IMG/VR virus record: IMGVR_UViG_2711768047_000011
Origin: a virus
Taxonomy: Duplodnaviria > Heunggongvirae > Uroviricota > Caudoviricetes
DNA length: 37,931 nucleotides
Strand: one strand, 5' to 3'
Shown: piece after piece, positions 1 through 11,350 of the stretch
Numbering within the stretch: the first letter of the stretch is position 1
How the letters are laid out: every line of letters begins with the position of its first letter
Program-made: the position numbers and the translations under genes
Notes under the pieces: model-generated
Seen by the model: the letters and a program-made list of their open reading frames with translations, nothing else
What the model was told of the DNA's origin: nothing
Databases searched by the model: none

Positions 1-1056
1 TTATTGCGGGGTAATGCCAACCGCTGCCGCCACTTTGTCGCCATTTGGTAACGTTGCCAGTGGATTGAAACGGAGCGCCGTTTCCAAATGATCCGGTGCC
101 AGATGCGCATAACGCATAGTCATTTTTATATCGTGGTGTCCGAGAATTTTTTGTAAGGCCAAGATGTTTCCACCCGACATCATGAAGTGCGCCGCAAACG
201 TATGGCGCAGAACGTGTGTCAGTTGACCGCGAGGGAGAACGATAGACGTTTTTTCCATCACGGATAAAAATTGAAAATAGCAGTCTGTGAAGAAATTGAA
301 CCCATCGAGCGCCATGATCTCTTCATAAAGCTCTTTACTGATAGGGATGCTTCTGTTTTTCTTCCCCTTCGTTCTCACAAAGGTGATTCGGTACTTGGTG
401 ACCTGTGAGCGGGTAAGATTGATTGCTTCTCGCCAACGTGCGCCTGTACTTAGACATATTTTTACCACCAGTGCCAGAATTGGGTTCTGACGTTTGCAGT
501 CAGACAGTAATTCGATAATCTGCTCATGTGTAAGCCATGCCATTTCCTTTTCTGCGATAGTGAATTTGCGCATCTTCTCTAATGGGTTTGGAAGTGTCCA
601 TTCACCCAGGCGGGAAAGTTCTCTGAAAACGCTGCTTAGATGGCTTTGCTCCAGGTTAACAGTAACTGGGCTTGCTCCTTTCTTCCATTTTTCACTGAAG
701 TAGATTTCACCAGTAAGGCGTTTATCGCGATAGTGAGCAAACATTTTTGAGGTGAGATCAGTTGCAAGGGGATTTCCCAAGGCGTCAACCATCAACAGCA
801 GCTTGTTGTAGACATGCTGTCCGGCAGTAAGAGATTTGCCATGTAATTTGAACCATAGCTCAACCATATCTTTCAGTGTCCGACGATCCACTGATTCGCC
901 CAGCCAGGGCTTTGCTTCTATTTCCCCCATGGTGTATCGCTCGAAGGCCAGTGCTTCGCCTTTGGTGGCGAATTGTTTACGCACACGACGCCCATTACGT
1001 CCGGCGGGGTAACATTCGCAAAGCCATTTCCCTGTGGTGAGTTTTCGTACTGCCAT
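1..1056 (-). CDS. int: P2-type tyrosine integrase
   Basis: ORF 1..1212; likely true start at ATG 1054..1056 (MAVRKLTTGKW..., RBS GGAGGG upstream). C-terminal HxxR...Y-type region (LRHTFAAHF, MRYAHLAPDHL) typical of phage integrases. Confidence 0.85.
   Translation of the reverse strand: MAVRKLTTGKWLCECYPAGRNGRRVRKQFATKGEALAFERYTMGEIEAKPWLGESVDRRTLKDMVELWFKLHGKSLTAGQHVYNKLLLMVDALGNPLATDLTSKMFAHYRDKRLTGEIYFSEKWKKGASPVTVNLEQSHLSSVFRELSRLGEWTLPNPLEKMRKFTIAEKEMAWLTHEQIIELLSDCKRQNPILALVVKICLSTGARWREAINLTRSQVTKYRITFVRTKGKKNRSIPISKELYEEIMALDGFNFFTDCYFQFLSVMEKTSIVLPRGQLTHVLRHTFAAHFMMSGGNILALQKILGHHDIKMTMRYAHLAPDHLETALRFNPLATLPNGDKVAAAVGITPQ
23..44. repeat. attL core candidate (GCTGCCGCCACTTTGTCGCCAT)
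   Basis: 21/22 identical to 34631..34652; lies within the last codons of int, as expected for P2-type attP core overlapping the int 3' end. Confidence 0.6.
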
Positions 1057-1244
1057 AAAAAATGCCCTCCAGTAGAGAGCATTTTCACTGTATGTATAAC
1101 CAGTGTCAATGTATGAAATCCTACGACCATACATCTCACTGAAGCCATAATTAAGTTGGCTATTCTTTTTGCTATGTGAGCATGTAACTTTTGCGGTTAA
1201 CCTGCGGCTCATTTTTATTTTAGGCGCAGATATAAAAGCAAAAG

Positions 1245-1436
1245 TTATCGTGAGTTTTTAGTACAGATTTTTTTGGATTTACTAATAGTTCCATCATTGC
1301 AAACGAATTTGCCATCTGAGGTACAGTGAGAAACACCTCCCTTTTTCCCTGAACAGGGATAATTTCTAGCATAGGTAGTTAGTGGGTTTAATAACAAAGA
1401 ACATGACAAAACCACAAAAAATACCTTACCAAGCAT
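1245..1436 (-). CDS. small secreted Cys-rich protein, unknown function (63 aa)
   Basis: RBS GGGAGGAAA before ATG; N-terminal signal-peptide-like hydrophobic segment ([19 protein letters not shown]) then a basic mature part with 4 Cys; AT-rich. Confidence 0.5.
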
Positions 1437-1451
1437 AGTTTCCTCCCGGTA

Positions 1452-2021
1452 CTATTTAACATACTTGACTGTTAAACTTATAATTTTACCAATTATTTCA
1501 ATGTCTTCTATCTTGCATTCGAACGCTCTGTTTCCACCCTCGACGAAGATTCTTCCGCCGGGTAAACGAGTAATGTCACGGATCGTTATTTCACCATCAA
1601 TACTTATTACCCATTTACCATCACGTATATCATCAAATTCCTTATCACAAATAAATTCAGAATTATTATCTGTGATTACAAAAAGACTCTTGAATGCCGA
1701 CGGTAGAAATCCCCTATCGAAAATATAAAAACCGTCTTCACACAAGGCCCCATCAGATAATACATATTTAGCAACTTCCATAGTATTTGTATTACCTGAA
1801 GTTTGCTTTGAACCATGCCCGGTTGTGAGCCAATTAAGCGAGGTGCCCGTTTCAAGGGCGCACTGGATTACCCATTCTGCGGGGAATGAGTCACGCATGT
1901 AGCGTGTGGCGAGTGTACTTTTAGAGATTCCTAAATGATCGCACAACGCCTGTCGAGTCTTGAATCCATAAGCTTCTACCATGCGCTCTATAGCGCCTCG
2001 TCCGCCTTTCTCCAAATTCAT
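1452..2021 (-). CDS. cI: 186-type CI immunity repressor (HTH)
   Basis: Resembles phage 186 CI family (EAYGF...L...HLGIS.STL..RY, CALETG..L.WL.TG); no LexA-like S24 peptidase motifs. ATG at 2019..2021 with GGAG RBS preferred over GTG at 2027. Confidence 0.75.
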   Translation of the reverse strand: MNLEKGGRGAIERMVEAYGFKTRQALCDHLGISKSTLATRYMRDSFPAEWVIQCALETGTSLNWLTTGHGSKQTSGNTNTMEVAKYVLSDGALCEDGFYIFDRGFLPSAFKSLFVITDNNSEFICDKEFDDIRDGKWVISIDGEITIRDITRLPGGRIFVEGGNRAFECKIEDIEIIGKIISLTVKYVK

Positions 2022-2027
2022 GGTCAC

Positions 2028-3951: not shown

Positions 3952-4805
3952 GCACCATCCTGAAATGGGCGGGAAATAAAACTGCCATAATGTCAGAACT
4001 GAAAAAACATCTTCCTGCTGGCCCGCGACTGGTTGAACCTTTCGCGGGTTCCTGTGCTGTGATGATGGAGACGGATTATCCCAGCTATCTGGTTGCGGAT
4101 ATTAATCCTGATTTAATCAACCTCTATAAAAAGGTTGCCGCTGATTGTGAATCATTTATATCTCGCGCCAGAGTTTTATTTAAGGAAGCAAACAGGGAGG
4201 TGGCTTATTACAACATAAGGCAGGAGTTTAATTACTCAACTGAAATTACTGATTTCATGAAAGCGGTATATTTCCTGTATCTCAATCGTCACGGTTACCG
4301 TGGTTTATGTCGCTATAACAAGAGCGGGCATTTCAACATTCCCTACGGTAATTATAAAAATCCGTATTTCCCTGAAAAAGAAATTCGCGCATTTGCAGAA
4401 AAAGCCCAGCGGGCAACGTTTATCTGCGCCAGCTTTGATGAAACGCTGGCGATGTTGAAGGCGGGGGATGTGGTGTATTGCGATCCGCCGTATGACGGTA
4501 CGTTTTCCAGCTATCACACTGATGGTTTCACTGAAGATGACCAGTATCACCTGGCATCCGTTCTTGAACATCGGTCATCAGAAGGACATCCGGTCATTGT
4601 TTCTAACAGTGACACATCCCTGATCCGTTCGCTGTATCGCAATTTTACTCACCACTATATCAAGGTAAAACGCAGCATCGGTGTGGCAGCTGGCGAGGGT
4701 AAATCAGCAACAGAAATCATTGCTGTTTCCGGGCCGCGCTGCTGGGTGGGATTTGATTATTCGCGTGGCGTGGATAGTTCTGCCGTGTACGGAGTACGTG
4801 CATGA
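3948..4805 (+). CDS. dam: DNA adenine methyltransferase (Dam family, N6-A)
   Basis: N-terminal LKWAGNK SAM-binding motif and catalytic DPPY (CDPPYDG); GGAGGTGA RBS. Confidence 0.85.
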
Positions 4806-7216
4806 GCCATGCCGATATGAACAACTGCTGCGGCTTTAACGAGGCTGCCGCAGCGTTCTCATGGAACAGCCCGAAAAAGGCCATTAACCCTTATCTGGAC
4901 CCGGCGGAAGTTGCGCCGGTTTCTGCGCTTTCAAACCTGATCACTCTGTACGCTGCCGATAACGAGCAGGAACAGTTGCGCCGCGAGGCACTGAGTGATC
5001 AGGTCTGGGAGCGTTATTTTTTTAATGAATCACGTGATCCTGTCCAGCACGAAATGGAGCAGGATAAGCTCATTAGCCGGGCAAAGCTGGCGCATGAGCA
5101 GCAGCGTTTTAATCCGGATATGGTCATTCTGGCGGACGTCAACGCCCAGCCTTCCCATATCAGCAAGCCGCTGATGCAACGTATTGAATACTTCAGCAGC
5201 CTGGGCAGGCCAAAGGCTTATTCCCGCTATTTACGTGAGACGATTAAGCCATGTCTGGAACGACTGGAGCATGTACGCGACAGCCAGCTATCTGCATCTT
5301 TTCGTTTTATGGCAAGCCATGTAGGGCTGGACGGCCTGCTGATTCTGCCTGAAATGAGTCAGGATCAGGTGAAACGCCTGTCTACCCTTGTCGCTGCGCA
5401 TATGAGCATGTGCCTTGATGCAGCTTGTGGTGATTTGTATGCCACCGATGACGTTAAGCCAGAAGAAATCCGCAAGACATGGGAAAAGGTGGCAGCGGAA
5501 ACCCTGCGTCTGGATGTTATCCCGCCTGCGTTTGAGCAACTCCGTCGGAAAAGAAACCGCCGTAAACCCGTGCCCTATGAACTCATTCCGGGTTCGCTGG
5601 CGCGTATGTTGTGCGCCGACTGGTGGTACCGGAAATTATGGAAAATGCGTTGCGAATGGCGGGAAGAGCAGTTGCGTGCTGTCTGCCTGGTCAGCAAAAA
5701 AGCATCTCCCTATGTCAGCTATGAAGCCGTGATGCATAAACGTGAGCAGCGCCGCAAGTCACTGGAGTTTTTCCGTTCTCATGAACTGGTGAACGAAGAG
5801 GGCGACACGCTGGATATGGAAGACGTGGTAAACGCCAGCAGCAGCAACCCGGCGCACCGCCGCAATGAGATGATGGCCTGTGTTAAAGGTCTGGAGCTTA
5901 TCGCGGAAATGCGCGGTGACTGCGCCGTTTTCTACACCATTACCTGTCCGTCACGTTTCCATTCCACGCTCAATAACGGCAGACCAAACCCAACTTGGAC
6001 AAATGCGACGGTAAGACAAAGCAGCGATTATCTGGTCGGCATGTTTGCTGCATTTCGTAAGGCGATGCACAAAGCCGGATTACGCTGGTATGGCGTGCGG
6101 GTGGCTGAGCCGCATCATGACGGTACAGTTCACTGGCACCTGTTGTGTTTTATGCGCAAAAAAGACCGCCGCGCCATCACTGCATTGTTGCGTAAGTTTG
6201 CCATCCGTGAAGACCGCGAGGAACTGGGTAATAACACTGGTCCACGCTTTAAATCTGAGCTGATAAACCCGCGCAAAGGAACACCGACAAGCTACATCGC
6301 GAAATACATTAGTAAGAACATTGACGGGCGTGGTCTGGCTGGCGAGATCAGCAAGGAAACGGGTAAATCCCTGCGTGATAACGCTGAATACGTTAATGCC
6401 TGGGCGTCTCTGCATCGTGTTCAGCAATTCCGCTTCTTTGGCATTCCGGGGCGTCAGGCTTACCGTGAACTGCGATTGCTGGCTGGTCAGGCGGCAAGGC
6501 AACAGGGGGACAAAAAAGCAGGTGCGCCGGTACTGGATAACCCGCGCCTTGATGCCATCCTGGCTGCTGCTGATGCCGGTTGTTTTGCCTCCTACATCAT
6601 GAAGCAGGGCGGCGTACTGGTTCCCCGCAAATATCACCTCATCAGAACCGCTTATGAAATCAACGAAGAGCCGACCGCCTATGGCGATCACGGTATTCGT
6701 ATTTATGGCATCTGGTCACCCATTGCAGAGGGTAAGATCTGCACTCATGCAGTGAAGTGGAAAATGGTTCGTAAAGCCGTTGACGTTCAGGAGGCGGCAG
6801 CCGACCAGGGCGCTTGCGCCCCTTGGACTCGTGGCAATAACTGTCCCCTTGCTGAAAATTTGTACCAACAAGGGAAAGACAAATCAGCTGATGGGGATAC
6901 CAGAACGGATATCATCCGTATGGATGACAAGGAGTTGCACGATTATCTGCACAGTATGAACAAAAAAGAGCGCCGAGAACTGGCTGCAAGGTTACGCCTG
7001 GTGAAACCGAAACGGCGTAGAGACTACAAACAGCGAATTACAGACCATCAACGACAGCAGCTCGTCTATGAACTGAAGTCCAGAGGATTTGATGGCAGCG
7101 AGAAAGAGGTCGATTTACTCCTTCGCGGCGGCAGCATTCCGTCAGGAGCAGGCCTGCGAATCTTCTATCGGAACCAGCGTTTGCAGGAAGATGATAAGTG
7201 GCGGAACCTGTATTAA
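4802..7216 (+). CDS. rolling-circle replication initiation endonuclease (P2 gpA-like)
   Basis: 804 aa; HUH-type motif (TVHWHLLCF) and tandem-Tyr region ([12 protein letters not shown]); start overlaps dam stop. Confidence 0.85.
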
Positions 7217-7308
7217 TTACGCGGGTTAACAATTCGTGCTCTTAATAATACCAGGCATATCAGGCTGATGAACGTAAAAAAACGTTTTACATCAGTAAGA
7301 TTATTATA

Positions 7309-7328
7309 TACTGTAAATATAAACAGTG
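7309..7328 (+). promoter_or_regulatory. LexA (SOS) box TACTGTAAATATAAACAGTG
   Basis: CTGT-N8-ACAG with AT-rich spacer, near-consensus; 40 bp upstream of the GGAGG RBS of the ORF at 7370. Confidence 0.6.
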
Positions 7329-7369
7329 GTTATACATACAGTATTGCTTGTGGTGTCATAGGAGGAAAA

Positions 7370-7558
7370 ATGCAGGACTATTTTTTGGAGTCTTTGAAGC
7401 TCCAACGCATTGATTTTTTTCTTAAGCTTGTAGCGGCTAGTGAGTGTAGTGATGAAGAGAAGGGGCTGGCTTTGCAGTGGGTTTCTGAACTAACAGATGA
7501 ACTCATGGCAAAAATCAGAACCCACGAATACAACCGCTCAATGGATGTCATCAGTTGA
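7370..7558 (+). CDS. small hypothetical protein (62 aa), first gene of putative SOS operon
   Basis: Strong GGAGG RBS then ATG 7370; the longer reading from 7268 would span the LexA box and is unlikely. Confidence 0.4.
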   Translation: MQDYFLESLKLQRIDFFLKLVAASECSDEEKGLALQWVSELTDELMAKIRTHEYNRSMDVIS

Positions 7559-7568
7559 GGTGACTTTT

Positions 7569-7802
7569 ATGCGCATTGAAATAATGATCGATAAAGAGCA
7601 GAAGATTAGCCAGTCTATCCTGGACGCCCTTGAATCCGAGCTTTACCGCAATCTGCGCCCCCTGTATCCAAAAACGGTAATTCGTATCCGCAAAGGTAGC
7701 TCTAACGGTGTGGAACTGACCGGACTGCAACTGGACGAAGAAAGGAAGCAAGTGATGAAAATTATGCAGAAGGTGTGGGAAGACGATAGCTGGCTGCATT
7801 AA
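7569..7802 (+). CDS. DinI-family (damage-inducible protein I-like) protein
   Basis: MRIEIMIDKEQ...LDALESELYRNL...KIMQKVWEDDSWL matches the DinI fold signature; own RBS GAGGTGA. Confidence 0.8.
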   Translation: MRIEIMIDKEQKISQSILDALESELYRNLRPLYPKTVIRIRKGSSNGVELTGLQLDEERKQVMKIMQKVWEDDSWLH

Positions 7803-7810
7803 GAAACGTT

Positions 7811-7840
7811 GCCCCCAGTAGGGTTCATTCTGATGGGGGC
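7811..7840 (+). terminator. hairpin after dinI-like gene
   Basis: GCCCCCA...TGGGGGC inverted repeat directly after the stop; no strong T-run. Confidence 0.3.
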
Positions 7841-7976
7841 TAGTTTGAGCAACGAGTGAAACGAGGCGTTAGGTGGGAGGCCATTTTGATAAGTTATCAC
7901 CCACTTTATACCAATAACAGAACTGCGTAATAACTATTTACCTCGGGGGAAGATGTGAGCCATACAAATTTCAGTA

Positions 7977-9035
7977 TTAATTTTCAATTCCCTCCATTTT
8001 ACAATGAGTTTTTTCCCAGAACTGTAATACAACAGGACTAGCCCACTCTGGCATCAGTGCGTTATTTAAAAAACTGAAAACATCATGAGACGCATCAGCA
8101 TTTTTTCTAAGGAATTTCCAGCCTTTTCTAGTATTTATCTCAACAATACCTAACCCACCATCATCAAACATATGCATCTTGAATTCAGGATTGTTTACAC
8201 CTAGAGATTTTATTTCTTTTATGTATGGACTATCTTCATCCATAAATATTTTCTCTATGTGCTTAGCACAATGATATATTTTATTTCGATAAGTTGATAC
8301 GCTCACAGCGGTACGCGCTGTTGTTATTCCCATTCCTAATGGGGCATATGCTTTTCCATCCATCACTACGGGCAGATTTATTCCATTTTTTCTTAAGTTT
8401 GCAATATCTGAATCTGTAGTTGGATGAATACAAGCTAAGCCTGAAATACCTTTCATTTCAAATATTTCTGCTGCTTCTGGCCAGTTGCGTATGAATGTTT
8501 CTACCAAATCTCTTTGAGAAAAAAGATTTGGTTCTATGTTTTTATCATGATGTTTTATATCAATAAAAAGCACAGCGTTTGAGTACACCTTCAGGAATAA
8601 TACCCACTCAGCACGATCTGAGTATTTTTTACTTGAACTTACTGGATTTAATGGCAGATGGAGGTGATGAATCCCCCAATCAGCCCATAGGTTATCCGTT
8701 CTTTTCGTCGCCTTTTTACCGCTTGTGTCATTGAATAATGTTAATGTTTTACTCTGATAAGGATTTACATCACCACCAGTAGTAAACAACATCTCGATTC
8801 TCTGCAATCCAACCCTTGCGCCATCGTGAATATTTTCAGGAAATCGATCTGATTTTAAAATTATTCGTTTTTGTGGAGCAATGTAGCGTAAAAGAAAATC
8901 ACACCACCTCAGTAGAGGATCGTGAAGATTTGAGTGCCCGGATTCATCATATAATAACCCAAATGCTTGAATTCCCTTCTCTGAAATTTCGTCAATATCT
9001 TTGATTAGATCAATATTTTTTCGTGCGTCCAACAT
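7977..9035 (-). CDS. hypothetical protein (352 aa), hotspot cargo of unknown function
   Basis: AT-rich ORF on opposite strand to flanking phage genes; GGAG RBS before ATG; no family recognised by eye. Confidence 0.6.
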   Translation of the reverse strand: MLDARKNIDLIKDIDEISEKGIQAFGLLYDESGHSNLHDPLLRWCDFLLRYIAPQKRIILKSDRFPENIHDGARVGLQRIEMLFTTGGDVNPYQSKTLTLFNDTSGKKATKRTDNLWADWGIHHLHLPLNPVSSSKKYSDRAEWVLFLKVYSNAVLFIDIKHHDKNIEPNLFSQRDLVETFIRNWPEAAEIFEMKGISGLACIHPTTDSDIANLRKNGINLPVVMDGKAYAPLGMGITTARTAVSVSTYRNKIYHCAKHIEKIFMDEDSPYIKEIKSLGVNNPEFKMHMFDDGGLGIVEINTRKGWKFLRKNADASHDVFSFLNNALMPEWASPVVLQFWEKTHCKMEGIEN

Positions 9036-9568: not shown

Positions 9569-11350
9569 ATGAATTTTGATGCAACACCACTAAATATAAA
9601 AAACATTCTATCTGTAAAACAAAGATATGTTATTCCTCGTAATCAACGTGAGTTTAGTTGGGAAAAGCTTCAGCTTGAAGAGTTATGGCAAGATATTGTC
9701 AGAAACATAAGGTTGAATGAAGATGGACAGAACTTGGAGTGTTCAGAATATTTTATAGGGACTATTGTTCTTTCTGGAGCAGATAGTGATGATGTATTAG
9801 AAGTGGTTGATGGACAACAACGATTTTCAGTTATTACTATATTGCTTTCATTAATATCGCGTAAATTGCGTTCCTTAGGGCAAGATTCATTAGCGGATGA
9901 TATATTTAAAACATATATCGTTACTGTGAGTCCTACATTTAGCAGAAGCCAATTAGCTTCAAATGGTGAGACATTTATTGAAAAATTAGCAAAAAATAGC
10001 GATAGAACATATTTTAAGTTAAAATATCAAGATCGCGAAGAGCATCAAGTTGATGAATCTTGTGAAGAGGATGTACGTATAAGTTATGCAGGAATTTTTC
10101 TTTCTAGAAAACTAGGGAGGAAATCACTCTGTTCTGCATTGTTGCGAGATGGTGCAAAACATTATAATAACCAAGATTATATATTTTGTTTGACTGCTGT
10201 ATATAGAATGATTACCAATTATTTGAAGTTGGTAAAAATATCTGTAGGTAAGGAGGATGATGCTTATGATATTTTTGAAGTGTTGAATGCTCGAGGGATA
10301 AACTTAAGTTCAATTGATTTGATAAAGAATAAAGTATTCCAAACTTGCACTCAAACATATCCGGTAGATATTGCAAAAACAAAATGGGATTATATCGTTA
10401 CTCAAATTGAGTCTAGGGATAGTAATAGCACTATTGCTGATTATATTAGAACGTGGTGGCTTTCTAAGTATAATTATATTGGAGAAGATCAACTTTATCG
10501 TGCTTTTAAACGTGAGATTCAAGATGAGAATACTTTATTGTCATCAGCATCATTTCTGAACGAATTATATGATGATGTTGAATTATACTGTAAAATAATA
10601 GCGCCAAATACAGATGACTGGCCTCAACCTGATCAGCGTGAAATTTACAACTCGTTAAAAGCATTCGAGATTTTTAATGTGAGTATTCCTCGACCATTTG
10701 TACTCTCATTACTTAGAAAACGTAAAGAGAAACCGAGAGCCCTTACACAATCAATGCTGATAGAATGTTTGAAGTCCTTAGAGTCATTTCACTTTAAGTT
10801 TAATGCAGTATGTCGTCTAAGACCATCTGGAATCGATGCAAAATATTCTGTATTAGCAGTAAGAATGAATAAGGCATTAAATAAAAGAGATGTTGAGGGT
10901 GTTATTAATGACGCGTTAGATTATTTTACACAGAAAGGGCCTTCAGAAAATATATTCAAACAAGCATTTTCAAAGAATATTGTTTATACAAATAAAAAAT
11001 CTGGGCAAAGGAAGTTGATTGTTTATATTTTTGACAAATTGGAACGTATCAGACGAGGGACGCGAGAGTTAAAAATGGATATAGTTTCTTTGGAGCACAT
11101 ATCATCTCAAAGCAAAACTAACGAGTCAGTCGTGGGTATGATTGGTAATTTACTACCACTCTGTTTTTCACTTAATGAAGATTGCAAAAATTATGAGTTG
11201 CACAAAAAAATAGAATCTTATAAAAAATCTGATTTAAAATTAGTTACAGAGTTTGTTAGTGAGTCAGAAGCAAGAGAACATAAATGGGATGATTCATTAA
11301 TAAAAGAAAGAACAGATAGCTTGGCGTTAGAAACGTTTGCTAAAATATAA
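9569..11350 (+). CDS. DUF262/DUF1524 fusion protein (GmrSD-family type IV restriction-like nuclease)
   Basis: N-terminal ParB-like DUF262 motifs (IPRNQREFSW, DGQQR at 9809..9823, FEVLNARGINLSSIDLIKN); C-terminal His-Me finger-like DUF1524 region (LEHISSQS...IGNLLPL...N). AT-rich, GAGGA RBS. Confidence 0.75.
   Translation: MNFDATPLNIKNILSVKQRYVIPRNQREFSWEKLQLEELWQDIVRNIRLNEDGQNLECSEYFIGTIVLSGADSDDVLEVVDGQQRFSVITILLSLISRKLRSLGQDSLADDIFKTYIVTVSPTFSRSQLASNGETFIEKLAKNSDRTYFKLKYQDREEHQVDESCEEDVRISYAGIFLSRKLGRKSLCSALLRDGAKHYNNQDYIFCLTAVYRMITNYLKLVKISVGKEDDAYDIFEVLNARGINLSSIDLIKNKVFQTCTQTYPVDIAKTKWDYIVTQIESRDSNSTIADYIRTWWLSKYNYIGEDQLYRAFKREIQDENTLLSSASFLNELYDDVELYCKIIAPNTDDWPQPDQREIYNSLKAFEIFNVSIPRPFVLSLLRKRKEKPRALTQSMLIECLKSLESFHFKFNAVCRLRPSGIDAKYSVLAVRMNKALNKRDVEGVINDALDYFTQKGPSENIFKQAFSKNIVYTNKKSGQRKLIVYIFDKLERIRRGTRELKMDIVSLEHISSQSKTNESVVGMIGNLLPLCFSLNEDCKNYELHKKIESYKKSDLKLVTEFVSESEAREHKWDDSLIKERTDSLALETFAKI

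Follow-up and report, generated by a model that had tools for sequence, protein, structure and literature searches.

By what route is a P2-family prophage with a 186-type, non-self-cleaving repressor induced when the DNA of its host is damaged? The question is raised by a short operon in IMG/VR virus record IMGVR_UViG_2711768047_000011, of which the whole stretch of 37,931 nt was analysed and is called the window below. The initial annotation had proposed that the operon is controlled by a LexA box and encodes a Tum-like antirepressor followed by a DinI-like protein. From the analysis reported here, the locus is very probably the SOS induction operon of a Fels-2-like, 186-immunity-type P2-family prophage, in the split tumA/tumB form and working by the mechanism set out below. 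The arrangement has already been described and has been genetically tested in a near-identical prophage; it is real but ordinary.

Genomic setting

The 37.9-kb window is a complete P2-family prophage, with an integrase gene, a 186-type cI, an apl/cox-like gene, cII, and gene A. Capsid, tail, and lysis genes are found downstream of gene A, and an ogr-like gene comes last. The prophage is of the Fels-2/186 type and from E. coli. A 561-aa ORF that flanks the prophage in the window agrees with ybjL in length. Two genes define the setting of the operon:

1452..2027, minus strand: 186-type CI immunity repressor (Pfam Phage_CI_repr, 2.8e-33, and Phage_CI_C, 6.8e-27)
4802..7216, plus strand: replication gene A of the P2 gpA family (Pfam Phage_GPA, 2.1e-127)

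For cI, ATG 2021 is the probable start codon, in line with the E. coli HS annotation. The repressor had been called a 186 CI without an autocleavage domain, and the Pfam search agreed, returning the Phage_CI_repr and Phage_CI_C domains and no significant Peptidase_S24 match for the window CI (below threshold, with no accepted stretch). No close relative of this CI was found in the phage collection, where the best identity was 56% and the values for Fels-2 and 186 were 41% and 33%.

The SOS operon (7286-7846) lies directly 3' of gene A on the same strand and outside the immunity region, and the order of gene A followed by the SOS operon is common to 186, PSP3, and Fels-2. The variable cargo region of P2-like phages lies beyond the hairpin that follows tumB. 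Its content in the window is as follows:

7977-9035, strand opposite to the operon: PD-T4-7 defence gene (PADLOC, 2.8e-144)
9569-11350: GmrSD/HEC-06-type enzyme, followed by the portal gene

Neither protein of the operon matched a defence system in PADLOC, and nothing was found in favour of the earlier idea that the defence genes nearby could be influenced by the DinI-like protein.

The two genes of the operon

7370..7558, plus strand: tumA-like gene encoding 62 aa (ATG 7370, stop 7556-7558, RBS AGGAGG at 7360-7365)
7569..7802, plus strand: tumB-like gene encoding a 77-aa DinI-family protein (ATG 7569, stop 7800-7802, RBS GAGGTGA at 7557-7563)
7804..7846, plus strand: GC-rich hairpin just after the tumB stop (core 7811-7840, GCCCCCA...TGGGGGC)

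Differences between the small ORF and seven diverged homologues fell on first, second, and third codon positions in the numbers 132/97/335, and those between the DinI-like gene and six diverged homologues in the numbers 98/64/326. This excess at third positions indicates that both genes are coding and under purifying selection.

The 62-aa protein was without a family in Pfam. In PHROG, it matched phrog_698 (3.6e-38), phrog_8554 (2.4e-8), and phrog_1993, the family of PSP3 TumA (2e-3), while residues 1-70 of 186 Tum matched the same three families in the reverse order (phrog_1993, 1.5e-23; phrog_8554, 3.4e-12; phrog_698, 5.9e-6). Pairwise BLASTP gave no alignment of the 62-aa protein with 186 Tum or PSP3 TumA, so the alignment to 186 Tum that had been put forward as a check failed at the pairwise level and was obtained with profile methods only. 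With hhalign, residues 4-42 of the window family were aligned ungapped onto residues 4-42 of the 186 Tum family (E = 1e-4), with a probability of just 58% because the alignments are shallow. In the joint alignment, E7, L20, A34, and E40 are invariant and R13 and C26 nearly so; identity to the N-terminal half of 186 Tum is about 21%, and the ESSI-2-type proteins are visibly intermediate between the window family and the Tum family. The PHROG cross-hits and the hhalign match bear out the Tum-like character first suggested for the 62-aa protein, and they make it a distant homologue of the Tum N-terminal half in 186. An AF2 model of TumA is a confident helical hairpin (helices 2-23 and 28-61, mean pLDDT 89.9); 12 of the residues are acidic and 7 are basic. 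A profile search of the PDB turned up no solved structure related to TumA.

The second gene had been assigned to the DinI family with its own RBS, and both points were confirmed. Its product matches Pfam DinI (PF06183) over residues 14-76 (E = 1.3e-22, 80.4 bits, cut-off 24.2), and its residues 1-75 align with E. coli DinI (PDB 1GHH), the ...VWEDDSW tail included. It is also 41% identical to residues 71-145 of 186 Tum (E = 9e-25), which marks it as the predicted equivalent of the C-terminal half of Tum. The profile links of the first protein to Tum, together with the DinI-like second gene, show that the window carries a split tum. The stop at 7556-7558 and the separate RBS divide tumA from tumB, unlike the single 146-aa Tum polypeptide of 186.

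The two genes are 10 nt apart. A hairpin at 7547-7564 covers the tumB RBS and may couple the translation of tumB to that of tumA; it is not significant against shuffled sequences and was the sole terminator-like site, a weak one, in the scan. The hairpin after tumB has a folding energy of -22.3 kcal/mol (z = -1.67, not significant alone) and a weak U tract. Homology to Fels-2 and most relatives stops at about 7800-7812, and this hairpin is probably the end of the operon, a positional analogue of the 186 terminator t95a. No RNA family was matched by Rfam between 7000 and 8200.

Comparison with known SOS operons

The locus resembles 186 in its site after gene A, in a LexA box placed on a TACTGT -10 element, in the homologue of the Tum N-terminal half, in the DinI-like moiety, and in the 186-type CI. 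The 186 record gives a LexA-repressed promoter p95, a LexA site starting at the -10 TACTGT, a 146-aa Tum, a partial terminator, and orf97. In 186, both moieties are fused in the 146-aa Tum, with internal starts that give DinI-like fragments, whereas the window has separate genes; the SOS box of 186 is single and that of the window double. The 186 layout of tum followed by a dinI-like ORF, as given in the initial annotation, was in error: in 186, Tum itself contains the DinI-like part, and orf97, which comes next, has no relation to DinI. No homologue of Orf97 was found in the window by tblastn.

The true match in layout is to tumA/tumB of PSP3 and to Fels-2. In PSP3, the same split layout follows gene A, in which a LexA box comes first, then a gene of about 60 aa, and then a 77-aa DinI homologue; the record annotates these as tumA ("similar to 5' end 186 tum; UV induction of prophage") and tumB ("similar to dinI and 3' end of 186 tum"). 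PSP3 TumB is 77% identical to the window tumB product, whereas PSP3 TumA belongs to another subfamily (phrog_1993, to which the window ORF has E = 2e-3) and the PSP3 SOS box is single and canonical. Fels-2 has 97.1% DNA identity across the module, where its genes are STM2728 ("hypothetical") and STM2726.1 ("DinI family, similar to PSP3 TumB"), but its CI is the one just 41% identical to the window CI. A tum split in two in Fels-2 and PSP3, with antirepressor activity of the upstream PSP3 gene, was described by Lemire et al. 2011 (PMC3121763).

Another likeness is to Gifsy-1, -2, and -3, where a small antirepressor is encoded together with a DinI homologue in an operon that LexA represses and that lies outside the immunity region; the repressor there is inactivated by antirepressor binding and not by cleavage (Lemire et al. 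2011, PMC3121763). The Gifsy phages differ in that dinI comes first, they are lambdoid, and their repressor and antirepressor belong to unrelated families.

The 62-aa protein as probable antirepressor

E. coli HS carries a P2-like prophage that no longer gives mitomycin C lysis or virion foci when tum is deleted in frame or when the host is lexA(Ind-) (PMC11195241). The primers of the HS deletion map to window positions 7350-7372 (one mismatch) and 7556-7578 (exact), from which it follows that what is lost in the deletion is precisely the 62-aa ORF homologue, and that the DinI gene and its RBS stay in place. The HS and window prophages share 61 of 62 residues in TumA (98%) and 187 of 189 in CI (99%), are 100% identical in the promoter and double box, and appear to occupy the same chromosomal site; ybjL flanks the HS prophage. 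HS and Fels-2 represent essentially the same element as the window prophage, with a different cargo downstream of tumB (in the window, the PD-T4-7 gene and the GmrSD-type enzyme). Induction through an SOS-controlled antirepressor, as proposed earlier, has thus already been tested, positively, on effectively the same phage, and the need for a cleavable LexA and for this ORF was shown by others in that near-identical prophage. Since lexA(Ind-) blocks the whole SOS response, it is alone no proof of direct LexA control of the tum promoter.

The 62-aa protein is probably the antirepressor of the prophage CI. Another reading, in our view improbable, is that it is needed for induction but acts elsewhere, on Apl/Cox, on RecA with the DinI-like protein, or on a host factor, and that its likeness to Tum is positional only. 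Such a role would agree with the weak sequence similarity to the N-terminal half of 186 Tum and with the pairing of the same TumA with dissimilar repressors, as phages with 98-100% identical TumA carry CIs of just 34-62% overall identity. The profile homology to the Tum and TumA families is, however, reciprocal and collinear, and the divergence of CI is unevenly spread over its domains. The N-terminal helix-turn-helix domain is 69-78% identical to that of the window in every phage with this TumA type, compared with 42-49% in phages with 186-, PSP3-, or ESSI2_ev015-type Tum and 60% in ESSI-2, while the C-terminal domain is 26-43% identical across all compared phages alike; as the comparison covered 13 phages only, with shared ancestry uncontrolled, it is a lead and not a result. 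In it, TumA type appears to track the CI N-terminal domain, as expected of a direct partner, and the pattern fits binding of TumA to the DNA-binding domain. Binding there would also explain a block of operator binding. 186 Tum is described, where PMC3121763 cites Shearwin 1998 and in the 186 annotation, as binding CI directly and reversibly and thereby blocking its DNA binding. A literature search on the CI domain bound by Tum was uninformative. On this evidence, direct action of TumA on CI is preferred.

The real effector is very unlikely to be the DinI-like protein, whether by itself or as a partner that the small protein cannot do without, in a scheme where the two ORFs would work only as a reconstituted two-piece Tum. 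The two parts are indeed one polypeptide in 186, and the 10-nt gap and the hairpin over the tumB RBS suggest coupled synthesis. The HS deletion nevertheless abolishes induction with the DinI gene and its RBS intact, from which TumB alone is insufficient. In ESSI-2-type phages, a LexA box precedes the small gene and there is no DinI gene; the antirepressor activity of PSP3 was attributed to the upstream gene, and the truncated DinI-like forms of 186 Tum are annotated as modulators.

Probable promoter and LexA operator

7286..7291, plus strand: probable -35 hexamer TTTACA of the SOS (p95-like) promoter, by likeness to annotated 186 p95
7309..7328, plus strand: LexA (SOS) box 1, TACTGTAAATATAAACAGTG, canonical CTGT-N8-ACAG, unique in the window and conserved
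7324..7343, plus strand: LexA box 2, CAGTGGTTATACATACAGTA, overlapping box 1 by 5 bp (shared CAGTG)

The -10 element is likely TACTGT at 7309-7314 (17-nt spacer), by analogy to 186, or else TATACT at 7307-7312 (15-nt spacer), and either candidate overlaps box 1. The annotated elements of 186 p95 are TTCACA, 18 nt, and TACTGT, compared with TTTACA, 17 nt, and TACTGT in the window. A simple sigma-70 consensus scan returned no promoter under its criteria, and the -10 element is weak.

The near-consensus SOS box noticed at the outset is found at 7309..7328, upstream of the 62-aa ORF and its strong RBS. It is the one occurrence of CTGT-N8-ACAG in the 37.9-kb window and the one site within three mismatches of the LexA consensus TACTGTATATATATACAGTA, and no such site arose in 100 dinucleotide-preserving shuffles. 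LexA-box control, as first described, was right as far as box 1 went and missed the overlapping box 2 (7324-7343), which makes the operator double. The left half of box 2, GTGG, deviates from the consensus (GTG for canonical CTG), and its right half is the consensus ATACAGTA. In an upstream alignment of ten phages, the single box of the 186, PSP3, and ESSI-2 types aligns with box 2 of the window. Box 1 is kept, and both boxes are present, in all Fels-2-type loci, and a LexA box is retained in every diverged relative, 186 included, where p95 is annotated as SOS-dependent.

Operator diversity was measured in 80 IMG/VR loci picked by protein identity alone; all 80 encode an identical 62-aa protein, so that the sample has no protein diversity but is unbiased for the operator footprint. 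It contained 53 upstream variants. Positions 7283-7298 were invariant in 79 loci. Nucleotide diversity (pi) was as follows:

-35 element to box 1: 0.007
Box 1: 0.02
Box 2 half-sites, 7326-7329 and 7337-7341: at most 0.05
Box 2 centre, positions 7334 and 7335: about 0.5
Third codon positions of the flanking genes: 0.08-0.10

Constrained half-sites around a very variable box 2 centre are the footprint expected of two functional LexA sites. A mutational hotspot at the box 2 centre was considered and rejected, as the most polymorphic third-codon sites in the vicinity show the same pi of about 0.5, and the centre reads simply as the unconstrained centre of a LexA site. From these features, the operator is predicted to consist of two SOS boxes that overlap in the manner of colicin promoters.

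The reading in which the SOS-box match is a non-working operator and the operon answers to the phage switch (CI or late activators), with SOS dependence indirect, could lean on the global block of SOS by lexA(Ind-) and on the weak promoter consensus, but it has next to no chance of being correct given the absence of comparable matches from shuffles, half-sites in both boxes more constrained than third codon positions around a varying box 2 centre, the box retained in every diverged relative down to the SOS-dependent p95 of 186, and an operator nearly the same as the LexA-binding operators of colicins.

Ahead of int, in a promoter-like site, another conserved box of the LexA type was observed.

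Likeness to colicin operators

The same 35-nt double box, CTGT-N9-CAGTGG-N7-TACAG, precedes colicin K, pesticin, a klebicin-like tRNase bacteriocin, and a ColE1-like plasmid gene. The window operator is 83-86% identical to these colicin-type operators over the 35-nt composite and has in common with them the shared CAGTG and an A-rich first spacer. The placement differs, as the boxes of colicin promoters lie just downstream of a TTGACA-type promoter whereas box 1 of the window overlaps the -10 element. The flanks of the window and colicin operators are without similarity, so common descent and convergence of the double boxes are indistinguishable. Among 120 sampled matches to the double-box pattern in viral contigs, 96 were immediately upstream of a TumA-type ORF.

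Two LexA dimers reportedly bind to double boxes of the colicin type, which hold expression under very tight control (PMC2994835). It is probable, by analogy, that the tum promoter is also very tightly repressed and is released only once LexA is deeply depleted. No paper connecting tum promoters with double boxes of the colicin type was found in a literature search that did not extend to Bunny et al. 2002 (PMC151935).

Proposed mechanism

In the undamaged lysogen, we infer that LexA would occupy both overlapping boxes, box 1 covering the -10 region and box 2 the probable transcription start, so that the promoter downstream of gene A would be shut. DNA damage would activate RecA and thereby the self-cleavage of LexA, and a short transcript for the two proteins would be made. 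The acidic, helical TumA would then bind the non-self-cleaving 186-type CI directly, probably at its N-terminal domain, and free the lytic promoter, and lytic growth would follow. TumB would most likely bind RecA filaments and tune the strength or duration of the SOS signal, and would be dispensable for antirepression as such.

Distribution and significance

A 644-nt region is 96-98% identical in many P2-family phages of Klebsiella, Salmonella, and Escherichia, and the module was found in 1124 of 5426 complete E. coli genomes. It explains the SOS switch to lytic growth of a P2-family prophage in about one fifth of complete E. coli genomes, and the same switch is present in many Klebsiella and Salmonella strains, the damage that sets it off including that from antibiotics. 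The operon borders a variable defence-gene hotspot, and its double operator points to a need for deep depletion of LexA before induction, as with colicins. The current understanding of the 186-type switch is unchanged. Beyond the initial observation, the analysis points to the colicin-type double operator, to a TumA type that varies together with the N-terminal domain of CI, and to the LexA-type box before int.

A wider role for the module is offered tentatively and with some doubt. One near-invariant TumA may serve as a common antirepressor for Fels-2-like prophages with divergent CIs (34-62% identity overall, 23-43% in the C-terminal domain), acting through their conserved N-terminal domain (60-78% identity). 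SOS induction could then cross-induce relatives in the same cell, and the prophage may have a small SOS regulon of its own, made up of the tum double operator and the LexA-boxed int promoter.

The module is also of value for annotation, as the antirepressor is "hypothetical" almost everywhere. Database labels of the small protein were "hypothetical" or, wrongly, "levan regulatory protein", and its PHROG entry was "unknown function".

A second LexA-type box upstream of the integrase gene

A second LexA-type box in the window was found on the minus strand before int, within a promoter-like block located upstream of the gene.

1054-1056, minus strand: likely int start codon (ATG)
1081-1109, minus strand: promoter-like block around the int box, consisting of TTGACA (1104-1109), 17 nt and GAAAAT
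1086-1105, minus strand: LexA-type box CACTGGTTATACATACAGTG (CTG-N10-CAG)
1260-1440, minus strand: small ORF (about 63 aa) lying as an insertion between cI and int

The box fills the spacer between TTGACA and GAAAAT and is placed 30 nt upstream of the likely int start. Over its central 16 nt it matches tum box 2 (the second, overlapping LexA box of the tum operator) exactly. The box and block are kept in the near-identical prophage of E. coli HS, in Klebsiella phage Kp4860-7 and in phage 813R9; in the latter two, the sequence further upstream is unrelated and the block itself is still conserved. This arrangement suggests that int has a putative SOS-controlled promoter of its own. In Fels-2, int directly follows cI, and no such LexA-type site is needed. 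The ORF between cI and int carries the label "hypothetical" in E. coli HS; it has the look of a lysogenic-conversion moron, one that sets int apart from the cI transcript. The start of its product resembles a signal peptide, and the protein contains several cysteines.

Divergence of CI and constancy of TumA

Among 50,697 phage records, none held a close relative of the window CI (the 186-type immunity repressor; 1452-2027, minus strand), the closest being 56% identical, whereas TumA, the 62-aa probable antirepressor, was 98-100% identical in many of the same records. The window CI was compared with loci L215-L225. In the CIs paired with this TumA, the N-terminal domain was kept at a mean identity of 73% to the window CI, and the C-terminal domain had diverged to a mean of 37%. 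As annotated, PSP3 cI (L225) encodes 286 aa and includes, upstream of the usual CI start, a second stretch like the CI N-terminal domain (...VRCCLDTGADINWLVNGE...), which suggests either that part of the sequence is duplicated or that the annotation extends too far.

Defence genes beside the tum operon

The variable region from the tum operon to the portal gene contains two defence genes.

7977-9035, minus strand: PD-T4-7 defence gene (PADLOC, 2.8e-144)
9569-11350, plus strand: GmrSD/HEC-06-type type IV restriction enzyme (Pfam GmrSD_N and GmrSD_C)

The PD-T4-7 gene had no match in Pfam or PHROG. Its orientation is convergent to that of the SOS operon, and any transcription running on from the tum promoter would consequently yield RNA antisense to PD-T4-7.

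TumA homologues and double boxes elsewhere

In the P2-family phages ESSI2_ev015 (L007, 701-913) and ESSI-2 (L008, from 701), one canonical LexA box is followed by a TumA homologue (41-49% identical) whose C-terminal tail is longer and which has no DinI gene beside it; in the ESSI-2 record, this ORF is wholly unannotated. The tumA homologue of phage 500465-1 (L009, 701-886) has ...EERGWLCSGVSEL... at the place occupied by ...EEKGLALQWVSEL... in all the others, a difference that looks like either a compensated frameshift pair or a sequencing error in the record. The DinI gene of the same phage is annotated with an N-terminal extension. The scan for the double-box pattern covered viral contigs and also found it in contexts other than tum: L129 and L211 carry a double box TTGACTGT..., a double box precedes a 267-aa ORF in L191 and L209, and in L120 (approximately 925-1010) some four LexA boxes overlap in a row (CTGTACGTTTATACAGTACTGTACAGAAAAACAGTGGTTATTTATACAGTACTGTGCATCCATACAGTA) before a 225-aa ORF.
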